Shown: positions 5,526-39,064 of the stretch, in pieces
Layout of the letters: each line of letters starts with the position of its first letter
How positions within the stretch are numbered: the first letter of the stretch is position 1
Virus record (IMG/VR): IMGVR_UViG_3300029951_000066
DNA: 39,064 nucleotides
From: a virus
Strand: one strand, 5' to 3'
Notes under the pieces: generated by a model
Told to the model about the DNA's origin: nothing
What the model saw: only the letters and a program-made list of their open reading frames with translations
Databases searched by the model: none
Position numbers and translations under genes: made by a program

Positions 5526-5887
5526 GCTGCACCTCGCTCGGCAGCCTTCTCAGCCGCAGTCATCAGCTCATCTGCCTTGTTGTCGGCCATCTTGCCGAAT
5601 GCAGTCGCCAGCAGTGTGCGCACAGCAAAGCCGAGACGCGCATCGCGATTCGCTTCGTCGCCGGCCCATGCGCAGCTCAGAATCGTGCCCTCAGCTTGCG
5701 CGAAGTATTCGACAGCGCATTGCATGTCGAGGCCGGTTGGAGCTGCACAGAGGCGCTCGTATTCAGTGCGAGCGAGCTTCTCGTGCTCAGCGTTGTATGC
5801 CTCAATCTGGCCCAGCAAGCGCGTGTAATGCGATGCAGCTTGCTCGTGGCGCGCTTCTGCTATGGATTCGGTACGGGCTAAGTTCAT
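5522..5887 (-). CDS. Hypothetical protein (121 aa)
   Basis: ORF with GAGG RBS upstream of ATG at 5887. Confidence 0.5.
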   Translation of the reverse strand: MNLARTESIAEARHEQAASHYTRLLGQIEAYNAEHEKLARTEYERLCAAPTGLDMQCAVEYFAQAEGTILSCAWAGDEANRDARLGFAVRTLLATAFGKMADNKADELMTAAEKAAERGAA

Positions 5888-5982
5888 GGATACCTCTGAG
5901 AGTGGTGCGGCGTCCCACCGCTGCGGCGTATGGAGCGGCCGTCGCTTAACGCTATTCGGCGTCGATCATCCGCGACAGCAGT

Positions 5983-6648
5983 TCATGCGCGGAGGCTTGG
6001 AGGGTTTTTACTGTAGGCCCCTGCGGCGGCCCATGCGGCGGCCCCTGCGGCGGCCCGTGCGGCGGCCCGTGCGGCGGCCCCTGCGGCGGCCCATGCGGCG
6101 GCCCCTGCGGCGGCCCATGCGGCGGCCCATGCGGCGGCCCCTGCGGCGGCCCATGCGGCGGCCCGTGCGGCGGCCCCTGCGGCGGCCCCTGCGGCGGCCC
6201 ATGCGTTTGCGGCTTCGGTTTTTGCCTTTTCAAGTGCTGGCATCGCAAGACGCAAGTCTTGCTCGCACGTTAAGGGTGGCAGCGCTTTCAGCGCATTAGC
6301 ATGGGGCATGAGTGCCGGCGTTAAAGTGAGCCAGGCAGCGGTATGCACGCGTACCAACCAGTCCATCGCCATCCAAGAACGCTTGCGGGAGAGTTCGGGA
6401 CCCTTGTTCGTGCCAACCAGGCGCACGATGTACTGCTTGAGCTGCTCGCGCTCTTCGTCGCAGTGCATGCCGTCGTTCCACGAGATGCCGAAAGAACGAA
6501 GCACCGGATCGACGCATTCCGGCGTGTCGCCAAACGGTTCGTTAGCGAACATGCTCACGACTTCGAGCAGGCAGTGACCATCGTCGGGCGAGCCGTGACC
6601 GCCATGATTCAGGGCGATTGCATCGAGCATTTCCAGTGTCAGTTTCAT
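5983..6648 (-). CDS. Hypothetical protein (221 aa): unique N-terminal domain of about 145 aa followed by about 16 tandem AAA[W/G/R] tetrapeptide repeats
   Basis: ORF with strong GGAGAGGAAG RBS at its ATG (6648); C-terminal third is encoded by a 12-bp tandem DNA repeat. Confidence 0.55.
   Translation of the reverse strand: MKLTLEMLDAIALNHGGHGSPDDGHCLLEVVSMFANEPFGDTPECVDPVLRSFGISWNDGMHCDEEREQLKQYIVRLVGTNKGPELSRKRSWMAMDWLVRVHTAAWLTLTPALMPHANALKALPPLTCEQDLRLAMPALEKAKTEAANAWAAAGAAAGAAARAAAWAAAGAAAWAAAWAAAGAAAWAAAGAAARAAARAAAGAAAWAAAGAYSKNPPSLRA
6018..6205. repeat. Tandem array of about 15.7 copies of a 12-bp unit (cccNtgcggcgg), with only the 4th base varying (a/c/g)
   Basis: Direct reading of the sequence; unit boundaries checked by position. 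Confidence 0.9.
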
Positions 6649-6665
6649 CTCTTCCTCTCCAGTTA

Positions 6666-6803
6666 TTAGAAATTGAGCCAGCGCACCACATACCGCACGT
6701 ATCCGATTGCTTGTTCCAGCCGATCAGCCAAAGTGTGGGCGTCGTCAGGCGTATCAAAGCCGCCTTCGTCAGCACCGGTTCGGATATCGATTACGTGGTA
6801 CAT
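6666..6803 (-). CDS. Possible small ORF (45 aa) between the repressor and the repeat-protein gene
   Basis: Manual translation; GAGG five nt upstream of the ATG; below the ORF-track size cut-off. Confidence 0.3.
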   Translation of the reverse strand: MYHVIDIRTGADEGGFDTPDDAHTLADRLEQAIGYVRYVVRWLNF

Positions 6804-6842
6804 GACGGCCTCGCGGTTGTTCGTGGTGCTGCGTTGGAATCA

Positions 6843-6871
6843 ACTATAATTCAACGTATGCATTTTGCCAA
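6843..6871 (-). promoter_or_regulatory. Putative sigma70-type leftward promoter (TTGGCA-17 nt-TATAGT on the minus strand) just downstream of the repressor gene
   Basis: -35/-10 hexamers with 17-nt spacer in an AT-rich intergenic stretch. Confidence 0.4.
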
Positions 6872-6894: not shown

Positions 6895-7188
6895 TCATGG
6901 CAATAGCGGTATTGTCCTTTTCCTCCGCTTGCGGCCTCGGACTATGGAGAACTTGACAATCGATGTGCGGTTGTCGTCGCCATTTCCGAAGTGTGCGACG
7001 AGTTCTTCTATAGACAGATCAAGCACTCGGGCTATCTGTTGAGCCTCGCCGAGCCTGACTTCTCGCTTGCCGCTGAGAGTGAGGGACATGCTTGACGGAT
7101 TCATATGGATCGCGTCCGCCAGTTCCTTCTGAGACATCTTGCGGGTCTTGAGCAATGCGCGGAACCATTTCAGGTCAATGTGTCGCAT
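6895..7188 (-). CDS. XRE-family HTH transcriptional repressor (CI-like)
   Basis: HTH motif SQKELADAIHMNPSSMSLTLSGKR; start at internal ATG (MRHIDLK) with GGAG RBS; divergent from a cro-like gene. Confidence 0.8.
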   Translation of the reverse strand: MRHIDLKWFRALLKTRKMSQKELADAIHMNPSSMSLTLSGKREVRLGEAQQIARVLDLSIEELVAHFGNGDDNRTSIVKFSIVRGRKRRKRTIPLLP

Positions 7189-7246: not shown

Positions 7247-7275
7247 TTGAGGTGTTCTTGGTGATACGCTAATAT
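7247..7275 (+). promoter_or_regulatory. Putative sigma70-type rightward promoter (TTGAGG-17 nt-TAATAT) for the cro-like gene
   Basis: -35/-10 hexamers with 17-nt spacer; AGAGGA RBS and ATG at 7300 follow. Confidence 0.5.
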
Positions 7276-7299: not shown

Positions 7300-7530
7300 A
7301 TGACCCCCGCTGAGATTGTCATCAAAGAATTCAATGGAATCGCGCCACTCGCTAGAGCTCTGGGTATAAGCTCAGCAACGGTTTGCCGGTGGCGCAGGCC
7401 TCGCCCGAAAGATCCGCAAGGAGGGCAAGTGCCGGGCAAGCACCATCGTCGCATCATCGAAATTGCGAAAGATCGCAACTTACCGATTGTCTTAAAAGAC
7501 CTCTGGTATGGCCGAGAAGAGCAGGAATAG
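7300..7530 (+). CDS. Cro-like HTH DNA-binding protein
   Basis: 76-aa ORF; motif GIAPLARALGISSATVCRWR resembles Cro/YdaS-type HTH; divergent from the repressor. Confidence 0.7.
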   Translation: MTPAEIVIKEFNGIAPLARALGISSATVCRWRRPRPKDPQGGQVPGKHHRRIIEIAKDRNLPIVLKDLWYGREEQE

Positions 7531-10505: not shown

Positions 10506-10661
10506 ATGCCAGCAGCTAAACAGGGCGAGAAGCTTTCCGACTTCCTCTCGCGGTTTGTGTCATCGAAACGTGAGGATCGCAAGTACTCGAACGTCAAGCA
10601 GCGCCTTGCTTTGGGCTACTCGGAAGCCAGAGAGCAGGCCAAGAAAGGAGTTAGGTCATGA
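10506..10661 (+). CDS. Possible small protein (51 aa)
   Basis: Manual translation with GGAGAG RBS; stop overlaps the HNH start (ATGA). Confidence 0.35.
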   Translation: MPAAKQGEKLSDFLSRFVSSKREDRKYSNVKQRLALGYSEAREQAKKGVRS

Positions 10662-11152
10662 GACGAATTGCGATCGCTAGGTTACATTTTTTGTTGCGCC
10701 TCGATGAAGCGACCGGGTTCCTGTGCTGGCGAGGGGCTAGCTTAGGGCATCACGCCGACGATCGCGCCGGAAGCCTGAAGAGCGATGGGTATCGCCGGGT
10801 CTACATCGATGGTTCGCGCATCTATGAGCACCGAATCACGTTCGCGATGACAAATGGTCGTTGGCCAGATTTGCACGTTGACCATGCCAACGGAGTACGT
10901 GATGACAATCGTCCCTGCAATCTTCGCGAGGCAACAAGGTCCCAAAACAATGCAAATAGTAAGATTTCTTTGCGTAACACCAGTGGGCTCAAGGGTGTCG
11001 GGTTCCACAAGCAAATAGGTAGATTCAGGGCCGACATACGGATTGAGGGGAGCCTCAAGTACCTCGGCCTATTCGATAGCGCAGAAGAGGCGCATGCCGC
11101 CTATATGCGAGCAGCGCAGCAATTCCATGGCCAATTCGCGAGGGCAGCATGA
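10658..11152 (+). CDS. HNH homing endonuclease with AP2-type DNA-binding domain
   Basis: Motifs HVDHANGVRDDNRPCNLREATRSQN (HNH) and SGLKGVGFHK...YLGLFDSAEEAHAAY (AP2-like); AAAGGAG RBS. Confidence 0.8.
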   Translation: MRRIAIARLHFLLRLDEATGFLCWRGASLGHHADDRAGSLKSDGYRRVYIDGSRIYEHRITFAMTNGRWPDLHVDHANGVRDDNRPCNLREATRSQNNANSKISLRNTSGLKGVGFHKQIGRFRADIRIEGSLKYLGLFDSAEEAHAAYMRAAQQFHGQFARAA

Positions 11153-13377: not shown

Positions 13378-13586
13378 TGGCAATCATCAGCGAAGCGTTT
13401 CGCATGTTAATACTGAAAGAGTCGGTAGGTGCTCTCGACCGAGAATATGCTGTATTTCGGGATGCCATTCCACGCCGCCATTCCACTGCGGGATTTATAG
13501 CAAAGCACAGCTACGATATCGCGCAGGATTCGGTTCGTACCTGCATCTCATGCGGCTCCAAAACTCAACCCTGTTGCGGGCACTGA
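13374..13586 (+). CDS. Hypothetical protein (70 aa)
   Basis: ORF with ATGA overlap. Confidence 0.4.
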   Translation: MMAIISEAFRMLILKESVGALDREYAVFRDAIPRRHSTAGFIAKHSYDIAQDSVRTCISCGSKTQPCCGH

Positions 13587-13587
13587 G

Positions 13588-13800
13588 ATGGCAACGATCA
13601 ATAGAGACGGCACGATCAATTTCGGCAACTCGAAGGGGTTGCTCTCGATAAGTGAGATCAATCGGAAGGCGATGGAATTCTTCGTGAAGATGCAGGAAAG
13701 CCAGGACATCTGGGACCGTCAAGAGCGCATCAGTGAGTTGCGCAAATCGTGCGGCGCTGAACCGCAGTACACGAAGATCAAGATCGGCTCAGGAGCGTAA
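13588..13800 (+). CDS. Hypothetical protein (70 aa)
   Basis: ORF in track. Confidence 0.45.
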   Translation: MATINRDGTINFGNSKGLLSISEINRKAMEFFVKMQESQDIWDRQERISELRKSCGAEPQYTKIKIGSGA

Positions 13801-36626: not shown

Positions 36627-37108
36627 TTAGCGAACTCTCCGTGAAGTCTTTCCCTGGCCTCATGAAGAGCGTTGCCAGCCTCTTCCTTCGATATGAAATA
36701 TCCCACGCATTTTTGCTTCCCATTGGATTGAAGTCGAGCTACCCATCTCGCACTGTATTTATGCCAAAACACTCCTTTTATTCCAGAAGTGTTATCAGTT
36801 CTAATCGACGCGTTTTGGGCGTTCTGCGAGTGTGTAGCATGCCTCAGATTAAAGAAGCTATCGTCCGATCTGCAGGTATTGCGATGGTCTATTTCATGTT
36901 CAGGGAAGACGCCGGTCATATATAACCAGGCGAGCCTGTTGGCCTTGTAGTTTTTGTTATCGACCATGATCTTTCTGTAGCCATCCGGCTCTATTGATCC
37001 TGCTAGATCGCCAGGCTTCAGACGATTAGAGGAAGGCTTGACCCAAGTGAATATCCCTGTTTCGGGATCATAGTGAAGGACTTCTTTTAGGCGTTCTTGA
37101 GTAAGCAT
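36617..37108 (-). CDS. HNH homing endonuclease with AP2-type DNA-binding domain (paralogue of the 10658 gene)
   Basis: Motifs ERLKEVLHYDPETGIFTW, EIDHRNTCRSDDSFFNLRHATHSQN, SGIKGVFWHK...VGYFISKEEAGNA; GGAG RBS at ATG 37108. Confidence 0.8.
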   Translation of the reverse strand: MLTQERLKEVLHYDPETGIFTWVKPSSNRLKPGDLAGSIEPDGYRKIMVDNKNYKANRLAWLYMTGVFPEHEIDHRNTCRSDDSFFNLRHATHSQNAQNASIRTDNTSGIKGVFWHKYSARWVARLQSNGKQKCVGYFISKEEAGNALHEARERLHGEFANHG

Positions 37109-38532: not shown

Positions 38533-39053
38533 GATTTATCTCCATGCGCAGCGGTCTTCATAAAGACGAGCCAGTGTGTGAGCCCTTTGCGGCCGCTTAG
38601 ATGGCCAAAGAGCGGCTTGACCTCAGCCAACGCCAAAACCTCACTCACCTTGATCTGCGTTTCATTCCACTTGAAGATCAAAACGCCATCCACGGAGAGC
38701 ACGCGAAAGCACTCTGCGAAGCCTCTGCGTAGGTCGTCGCGCCAGTCGGGACCGAGTTGGCCATACTTAGCTGCCAACCAACTCTTGGCTCCAGCACGCA
38801 CCAAATGCGGCGGATCGAACGAAACCAGTTTGAAAGCGCCGTCCGAATACGGCAAAGCACGGAAATCCAGCATCACGTCAGGCTCAATGCGGAGCGTGCG
38901 CGTGCCGCTGTCGTTACCATGCGAGCGGTCAGTAACGGTCAGCACCTCGTGACGCTGGTCGCCAAAGATCACGCTCGGGTGCTGGCGGTCAAGCCACATC
39001 ATTCGTCCACCGCAGCACGGGTCGAGAATTGTCTTTTCGGCTACGTCGCTCAC
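38529..39053 (-). CDS. Small SAM-dependent DNA methyltransferase-like protein (amino-methyltransferase motifs I and IV), orphan; GTG start lies in the terminal repeat
   Basis: Motif I-like ILDPCCGG and motif IV-like DPPH (DPPY variant); GGAG RBS; no adjacent restriction endonuclease gene. Confidence 0.55.
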   Translation of the reverse strand: MSDVAEKTILDPCCGGRMMWLDRQHPSVIFGDQRHEVLTVTDRSHGNDSGTRTLRIEPDVMLDFRALPYSDGAFKLVSFDPPHLVRAGAKSWLAAKYGQLGPDWRDDLRRGFAECFRVLSVDGVLIFKWNETQIKVSEVLALAEVKPLFGHLSGRKGLTHWLVFMKTAAHGDKS

Positions 39054-39064
39054 GCTCCGCTCCC
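38938..39064. repeat. Terminal redundancy, copy 2 (identical to 1-127)
   Basis: Exact 127-nt identity with the window start. Confidence 0.9.

Follow-up and report, generated by a model that had tools for sequence, protein, structure and literature searches.

In the IMG/VR virus record IMGVR_UViG_3300029951_000066, a stretch of 39,064 nucleotides (nt) that was analysed as a whole and is called the window below, a gene on the minus strand carries an array of 12-nt tandem repeats in which a single base varies. The locus raises the question of what such an array does inside a phage gene: whether it is translated and in which frame, whether its copy number changes, and whether it marks the gene as a locus of exclusion, defence or contingency, as a first-pass annotation of this DNA had proposed. 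Our answer, to which we give a probability of roughly 0.6, is that the array encodes a module that would form an expandable, alanine-rich helical hairpin in an accessory protein of the early region, and that this copy of the protein is truncated by a frameshift.

Reading frame of the repeat array

Exact matching of the pattern CCCNTGCGGCGG gave 15 contiguous copies at 6018-6197, and a partial 16th unit extended the array to 6205. In shuffled sequences the same pattern had a mean of 0.06 matches, and 15 were never reached. Tandem Repeats Finder reported positions 6016-6205 with a period of 12, 15.8 copies, 93% matches and zero indels. The variable base was a, c or g only, and the remaining unit positions were invariant in all units of the window. 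The first-pass annotation had described about 16 copies of a 12-bp unit with one variable base, and both methods confirmed this.

Read on the minus strand, each unit is GCC GCC GCA [T/G/C]GG, in frame with the ATG at 6648. These codons, together with the layout of the protein family described below, support the proposed reading as AAA[W/G/R] tetrapeptides with the variable base at codon position 1. The proposed start also held, as the ATG is preceded by the Shine-Dalgarno-like GGAGAGGAAG. The two alternative frames encode (GPPQ/H)n and (GRR[R/M/T])n, as had been stated.

The array has no stop codons in several frames on both strands and thus opens spurious open reading frames (ORFs) of 64-145 amino acids (5862-6299 on the plus strand, 5952-6248 and 6008-6202 on the minus strand), with products such as PLRRPMRRP..., GPPQGPPH... 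and GRRRGRRM.... In GC-rich relatives, antisense ORFs over the array were longer than the real gene, misleading a naive gene caller. A second small tandem repeat, with a period of 18, 1.9 copies and 88% matches, was found at 13585-13620 of the window.

A large protein family with a common layout

When the N-terminal 150 amino acids of the protein were used as a query, 120 homologues were found at E <= 1e-3, with identities from 100% to 41% and E-values from 1.8e-98 to 9.9e-19. This supported the non-repetitive N-terminal domain of about 145 amino acids that had been proposed. The named homologues were mostly from Burkholderia, Paraburkholderia, Pandoraea, Cupriavidus and other Burkholderiales, or from metagenomes. 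All of the named homologues, distant members included, were labelled 'hypothetical'. In a search of the family profile against 1.84 billion cluster representatives (50% identity clusters), 8,376 representatives matched at E <= 1e-3, 5,623 at E <= 1e-10 and 1,698 at E <= 1e-30.

We read 60 of the 150 profile matches listed, and the layout was identical in all 60: the N-terminal domain, then from 2 to about 50 units of the form [A/D]AA[W/G/R], then a conserved tail, (K)LEPTVxxLQASAHxLFxRMIDAE. In a census of the units, the second and third residues were Ala in >98% of units, the first residue (x1) was A, D or, less often, V, and the fourth residue (x4) was W, G or R in about equal shares. Residues E, D, P, N, R and D of the N-terminal domain were invariant in the family, and an H/C/C set, which may be a metal site, was nearly so. 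The architecture shared by the homologues suggests that the AAA[W/G/R] frame is real and that the gene lies in a large, undescribed family. Judged by its sequence, the gene is a member of a very large unnamed family.

The window protein and several relatives had no match in Pfam, PHROGs, NCBIfam or PADLOC. When all 95 aligned members were scanned against Pfam, the only matches were scattered and weak. Four PHROG families (13065, 8332, 18326 and 3416) were matched by 40 to 62 of the 95 members, with best E-values of 7.8e-06, 9.2e-11, 1.5e-09 and 7.5e-13, respectively; all four are annotated 'unknown function' with no described role, and the window protein matched none of them at E <= 0.01. These weak matches suggest that distant relatives are present in sequenced phages. 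Among GenBank phages, megablast with the 3-kb neighbourhood of the gene gave no match; with tblastn, the matches were limited to one unannotated record and a hypothetical protein of Ralstonia phage RS-CA1. Literature searches by topic, peptide motif and DNA motif returned nothing relevant on the family, and no solved structural relative was found.

The conserved tail is out of frame in the window allele

The window protein has the N-terminal domain and the tetrad array that characterize the family, and it lacks the in-frame tail LEPTVxxLQASAHxLFxRMI. Past the last unit, the ORF continues with the codons GCC TAC AGT AAA AAC CCT ..., giving the 11 amino acids AYSKNPPSLRA and then a stop. The +1 frame keeps all the nearly invariant residues of the tail and ends at a stop at 5952-5954. 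In two close relatives, the linker between the last unit and CCT reads GCG AAG CTC GAA (L008) or GCT GCG CTC GAG (L007). Compared with these, the window lacks 8 or 11 nt (3n+2), coding for the (A/K)LE linker, at the junction. No recoding signal was recognizable at the junction by inspection, the only means used. Among 57 loci, the tail motif was in the +1 frame only in the window, L026 and L027, which form one lineage.

The position of the conserved tail in the +1 frame indicates that the window allele is truncated: standard decoding of this sequence does not translate the tail. The simplest reading is a recent deletion that truncated the protein, and the gene of the window is probably impaired or decaying. 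The first-pass annotation, which had the frame right, had missed this frameshift relative to the family and the conserved tail lying in the +1 frame.

Altered tails were found elsewhere in the family, where P0087, P0099, P0053, P0066 and L035 have unrelated or GPP-frame ends. Breakage at the array thus appears to recur. A 652-nt European Nucleotide Archive (ENA) contig, k141_382469 (L006, protein P0012), has a different N-terminal domain, with 47 of 148 amino acids differing, and a short array. Its 3′ part is identical in DNA to the window phage and is therefore not independent evidence. We rejected this contig as an independent witness of the shifted tail; it is either a natural recombinant with a crossover in the array or a chimeric assembly.

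Copy number varies in frame among close relatives

The exact 221-amino-acid protein of the window was present on at least 27 public contigs from Joint Genome Institute (JGI) and ENA assemblies. Seven further variants in the same 90% cluster, all from short-read assemblies, had the same first 148 amino acids and shared the shifted tail. The window and these variants had 6-17 units, and their lengths differed by multiples of 4 amino acids. Four shorter variants were single internal deletions of the window's string of units, and one longer variant was a one-unit duplication. Multi-unit block duplications were significant in about 9 of the 33 longer arrays. The array is an in-frame coding variable-number tandem repeat (VNTR) whose copy number is polymorphic among close relatives. 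This is the in-frame change of copy number that had been expected from the unit length, seen here across eight variants; when copy number and variant order were compared across relatives, both differed.

For example, the 16.65 kb shared by L003, which is of the window type, and L067 differed by seven substitutions and one 12-nt indel. All of these differences (L003 10452-10544) were inside the 188-nt array, with none outside it. Six of the seven substitutions were at positions 2 or 10 of the unit, and all seven were in the first seven units. This pattern is better explained by a single tract of conversion or recombination from a co-occurring relative, or by chimeric assembly, than by independent point mutations.

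One family protein of Burkholderia multivorans was unchanged on eight chromosome-sized contigs, each >1 Mb. Together with the occurrence of the same window protein on at least 27 contigs, this suggests that any change is slow.

Predicted structure and a model of the module

We ran AlphaFold2 with the family alignment on two full-length relatives, P0003 (192 amino acids, 5 units) and P0004 (256 amino acids, 24 units). Both models were all-helical, with a predicted local distance difference test score (pLDDT) of 95.7 and a predicted template modelling score (pTM) of 0.89 for P0003, and of 91.8 and 0.81 for P0004. The pLDDT was 96-99 in the tail and 92-99 in the N-terminal domain. The last two helices of P0004 spanned residues 129-187 and 193-253, and the break between them (188-192) was at the midpoint of the array (about 146-231). 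The helix break of P0003, at 155-162, was also in the middle of its array. In these models the two halves of the array probably form an antiparallel, alanine-packed helical hairpin, and each added unit would lengthen the projecting hairpin by about 3 Å if ideal helices are assumed.

We propose that the array codes for a repeat module within an accessory early protein of this temperate, P22-like phage. Proteins of the family have three parts: a conserved head predicted to be helical, 2-50 units of x1-Ala-Ala-x4 (x1 being A, D or rarely V, and x4 being W, G or R), and a C-terminal helix that is likewise conserved. The halves of the repeat would fold back on each other, and the C-terminal helix would return to the head domain. 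Units are gained and lost in register by replication slippage or by unequal recombination between the 12-nt units, and arrays double as crossover points between related phages, as comparison of relatives shows, subject to the caveats of assembly. In this lineage, loss of 3n+2 nt at the junction of array and tail has put the helix out of frame and left a truncated product.

Several points weigh against this proposal. The out-of-frame tail is perfectly intact, so that either the deletion was recent or the tail is decoded in some way that we do not see. The L006 contig looks like a chimeric join or a true recombinant. The hairpin packing was deduced from where the helix break falls, together with secondary structure and pTM, and not from coordinates. 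Along the long arms the pLDDT fell to 64-88, and a period of 4.0 residues cannot hold one helix face in contact. No complementarity of W opposite G was found across the presumed hairpin. The evidence on copy number and substitutions came mostly from short-read metagenome assemblies, in which repeats may collapse or join chimerically. When ordered unit patterns and cross-hairpin pairing were searched for, nothing exceeded |z| of about 3, and that at arbitrary offsets. The order of units was near random, with observed/expected ratios of 0.83-1.20 for adjacent pairs and no long-range pattern.

Variation is concentrated at two positions of the unit

We measured nucleotide heterozygosity within arrays and averaged it across 40 arrays. 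Position 2 of the unit, where C/A gives Ala/Asp, had a mean of 0.43, and position 10, where T/G/C/A gives Trp/Gly/Arg, one of 0.57. At all other positions the mean was 0.00-0.04, and at the synonymous positions 3, 6 and 9 it was about 0.01. These synonymous positions vary between lineages; for example, position 9 may be that of GCA, GCC, GCG or GCT. G-C is retained at the first two positions of the Ala codons, whose third positions differ between lineages. The two variable positions, codon 1 position 2 and codon 4 position 1, flank GGG. The permitted residues are alike in codon form (NGG for x4; GNY for the A, D, V and G of x1), not in chemistry.

This pattern indicates that the units are homogenized within each array by concerted evolution, that Ala-Ala is under constraint at the protein level, and that the two bases flanking GGG are polymorphic in every lineage. 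A two-site pattern of this kind calls for one of two things: selection that favours mixed units, or a raised supply of change at these specific sites.

Genome context

The features of the gene and its surroundings are listed in Table 1. The ends of the window are identical (1-127 and 38938-39064), a signature of assembly with k = 127, which indicates a circular contig and a complete genome of about 38.9 kb. The phage is P22-like and temperate, with a P22-type portal and an Sf6-type terminase. It was also found integrated, beside an integrase at the prophage end, on an 89.8-kb contig (L002).

Table 1. Features of the repeat-bearing gene and its neighbourhood in the window
Feature	Position	Strand	Basis or remark
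ORF of 221 amino acids: N-terminal domain, 16 tetrapeptide units, unrelated tail AYSKNPPSLRA*	5983..6648	(-)	Apparently truncated family allele
All-helical conserved N-terminal domain, amino acids 1 to ~145 (predicted)	6214..6648	(-)	Homologues, conservation, AlphaFold of relatives
12-nt array, coding strand GCC GCC GCA NGG, giving AAA[W/G/R]	6018..6205	(-)	15 exact units and 1 partial
Array/tail junction GCA GGG G/CC TAC (slash at the joint)	6013..6021	(-)	Codon-by-codon comparison with L007, L008
Conserved family C-terminal helix PTVKTLQASAHELLSRMIDAE*, intact, in the +1 frame relative to the N-terminal domain	5952..6017	(-)	
Shine-Dalgarno-like GGAGAGGAAG, 2 bases ahead of the ATG	6651..6660	(-)	Read from the sequence
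ORF of 45 amino acids, no family match, probably co-transcribed, 17 nt from the repeat-bearing gene	6666..6803	(-)	Also in public gene calls
Sigma-70-like promoter match TTGGCA-17-TATAGT, 10/12	6843..6871	(-)	Consensus match only
CI-like helix-turn-helix repressor, 97 amino acids from the ATG at 7188	6895..7188	(-)	Pfam HTH_3/HTH_26, PHROG repressor families
Cro-like gene facing the CI-like repressor	7300-7530	(+)	

The order on the minus strand is the CI-like repressor, a 91-nt gap, the 45-amino-acid ORF, the repeat-bearing gene and four small ORFs, followed by a DUF3799 (exonuclease VIII-like) gene and a phrog_11517 protein. The promoter-like match is in the 91-nt gap, between the stop codon of the repressor-like gene and the small ORF. 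The gene had been placed 'just downstream of the repressor'; it is indeed downstream on the same strand, but it is separated from the repressor by the gap and the small ORF. In relatives, the gene is in the leftward early region, often beside RecT, ERF, YqaJ, NinB or DUF3799 genes, and in 17 related loci a CI-like gene was 0.8-5 kb upstream on the same strand. No conserved neighbour gene was found over 40-odd loci beyond the usual lambdoid modules. From these gene orders, the position of the gene is that of an early-left operon, between the repressor and recombination or integrase genes.

Among B. multivorans prophages (L068 compared with L034, L035, L037 and L069), the family gene forms an island of about 95% identity within unrelated flanks, which suggests that it moves as a cassette between mosaic phage genomes. 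One of these prophages, L069, carries a 267-amino-acid pentapeptide-repeat protein (1937-2740) in the same early-left operon, directly upstream of ERF, YqaJ, NinB and the family member. Pentapeptide-repeat proteins belong to the fold class of the DNA mimics Qnr and MfpA.

Two other observations concern the window itself. An 11-mer, TGTTC[G/T]TGGTG, is present in the gap past the repressor (6818-6828) and in the intergenic region between the repressor and the Cro-like gene (7253-7263). It may be one half of an operator or may match by chance, and it was the only shared operator-like motif, a weak one, in the two intergenic regions flanking the repressor. The window also encodes two HNH_3 paralogues with 39% identity and a faint AP2 match, at 10658-11149 (plus strand) and 36629-37093 (minus strand). 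They look like genes of the homing-endonuclease type; one is in the replication/late-regulation region, and its paralogue lies across the genome from it.

Alternative explanations

The concentration of variation at two positions could also be explained if site-directed diversification, beyond slippage and selection, rewrote the two nucleotides flanking GGG and made the array a repeat-based diversity generator. The contrast in heterozygosity across the 40 arrays, the residue sets that are alike only in their NGG and GNY form, and the six of seven substitutions at positions 2 and 10 between the 16.65-kb segments would all be expected from such a process. Against it, the genes called in the 20.7-kb loci surrounding the gene, which cover about half of the genome, gave no reverse transcriptase match, the window has no further copy of the repeat to act as a template, and the adenine of GCA is invariant in arrays, ruling out the adenine mutagenesis of diversity-generating retroelements (DGRs). 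A DGR was rejected for these three reasons. The restriction of the seven substitutions to the first seven units is what one conversion tract or a chimera predicts, and a co-occurring relative using the same codons is a candidate donor. Close relatives differ chiefly by indels of units, and concerted evolution with selection for mixed units yields the same pattern. We regard site-directed diversification as very unlikely. An alanine-scaffold hairpin that works as a diversity system, its two N-GGG-N positions made hypervariable by dedicated or structure-induced mutation or by strong diversifying selection, is quite unlikely as well. It is also unlikely, in our view, that the repeat is a neutral, slippage-prone, low-complexity spacer and the gene in this phage a decaying pseudogene. 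That explanation would account for the near-random order of units, for lengths spanning 2 to 50 units, for the recurrent frameshifted or altered tails, and for a phage that is common although its allele is truncated. It does not sit well with the persistence of the tetrad pattern, strict in Ala-Ala and free at third positions, over thousands of diverged clusters, with the presence of at least two units in every full-length member examined, or with AlphaFold models that show confident helices and not disorder. A further reading is that the array acts as DNA or RNA (for example as protein-binding iterons, a recombination hot-spot or a structured RNA) and that the ORF is incidental. The array is GC-rich and perfectly periodic, with GGG each 12 nt, and it holds all the differences between near-identical phages as well as the joint with the foreign N-terminal domain of L006. 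Between the variable sites, however, lineages differ synonymously while the peptide pattern is kept, and the array invariably sits in frame, with a conserved segment of the protein on either side. As RNA it folded worse than shuffled controls (z = +5.3), so that a role as RNA structure was rejected, and action at the nucleic acid level is highly improbable overall.

An artefact of assembly, in the array or at the frameshift, is more improbable still. Short-read assemblies do break or collapse at such repeats, and many database members stop inside the array at contig ends. Yet the identical 221-amino-acid product was recovered from both JGI and ENA projects, and the frameshift is at a unique junction outside the repeat. 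The array is 188 nt long with an aperiodic variable base, so that 127- to 141-mers anchored in the unique flanks can, by our reasoning, span it. There remains the proposal that the gene is a lysogen-expressed exclusion or defence gene, or a contingency locus, like rexAB or sie, in which a fast-changing repeat alters specificity. The gene is downstream of a CI-like repressor on the same strand, with no predicted terminator-like site between them; the CI-like gene of the 17 related loci has a similar place; and near-identical phages vary in copy number and unit order. The matching of window and relatives to PADLOC, Pfam, PHROGs and NCBIfam, however, brought up no Rex, Sie or defence model, and left the candidacy for defence or exclusion unsupported. 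RexB and Sie are membrane proteins, whereas the AlphaFold models consist wholly of soluble helices. The analogy of position with rexAB or sie holds for the general place on the map and is loose beyond that, because the relatives are in the early region, among recombination genes and without a fixed neighbour, and because the 45-amino-acid ORF and a promoter-like site are between repressor and gene. With a unit of 12 nt, slippage changes the length by multiples of 4 amino acids and cannot switch the gene on or off, so that this is not a classical contingency locus and that part of the proposal was not supported either. The stability of the protein on at least 27 contigs, and of its relative on the B. 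multivorans contigs, would also argue against rapid change, and the window allele is without the conserved tail. We consider an exclusion, defence or contingency role quite unlikely.

Comparison with known systems

In-frame coding VNTRs are known from the streptococcal alpha C/Rib and M proteins, and collagen-like repeats from phage tail fibres. The present family resembles these in its unit of a multiple of three, its in-frame differences in copy number, its concerted evolution and its predicted elongated element. It differs in its four-residue unit, in the confinement of variation to two nucleotides per unit, and in that the protein, apparently cytoplasmic, comes from a phage early operon and is neither a surface nor a virion protein. 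Alanine-rich antiparallel helical hairpins ('Alacoil'-type packing and designed hairpins) are also among the closest known systems.

The gene shares its general place on the map of a temperate phage, leftward and on the same strand as the repressor, with lambda rexAB and P22 sieA/sieB. It differs from them in having no sequence or model match, a predicted soluble helical product, and the small ORF and promoter-like site between it and the repressor; in relatives it stands beside RecT, ERF or exonuclease genes, in early-operon territory. It shares with bacterial simple-sequence contingency loci a slippage-prone tract inside a gene, but its 12-nt unit gives no on/off states, and no evidence of high-frequency change was found, with an identical protein on the eight B. 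multivorans contigs. The likeness to DGR variable proteins is in variation at a few defined nucleotides that alters exposed residues; the differences are the lack of a reverse transcriptase match in the loci around the gene and of a template repeat in the window, and an adenine of the unit that is invariant.

Significance

For annotation and strain typing, the array opens spurious ORFs in all frames, breaks short-read assemblies and hosts mosaic joints. It is also the site at which near-identical phages differ, which is relevant to annotators and to strain typing alike.

About 8,400 cluster representatives match the profile of this family, which has no name, no Pfam model and no solved structural relative. 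The layout is unusually clean, with a conserved head, a predicted hairpin whose length would be set by copy number, and only two varying residues per unit. Our best guess is that the protein binds a host or phage factor as part of the early-left operon, with its reach and surface tuned by the array.

If the diversity system were true, it would let temperate phages quickly re-tune both a binding surface and its reach against a target in the host or in a rival phage, and it would be a route other than a DGR to targeted protein diversification in thousands of prophage lineages. If the hairpin and the non-neutrality of its variation are true, the array would be a simple natural protein module that is tunable in length and surface, and the family would probably take part in conflicts of phages with hosts or with other phages, in Burkholderiales and more widely.

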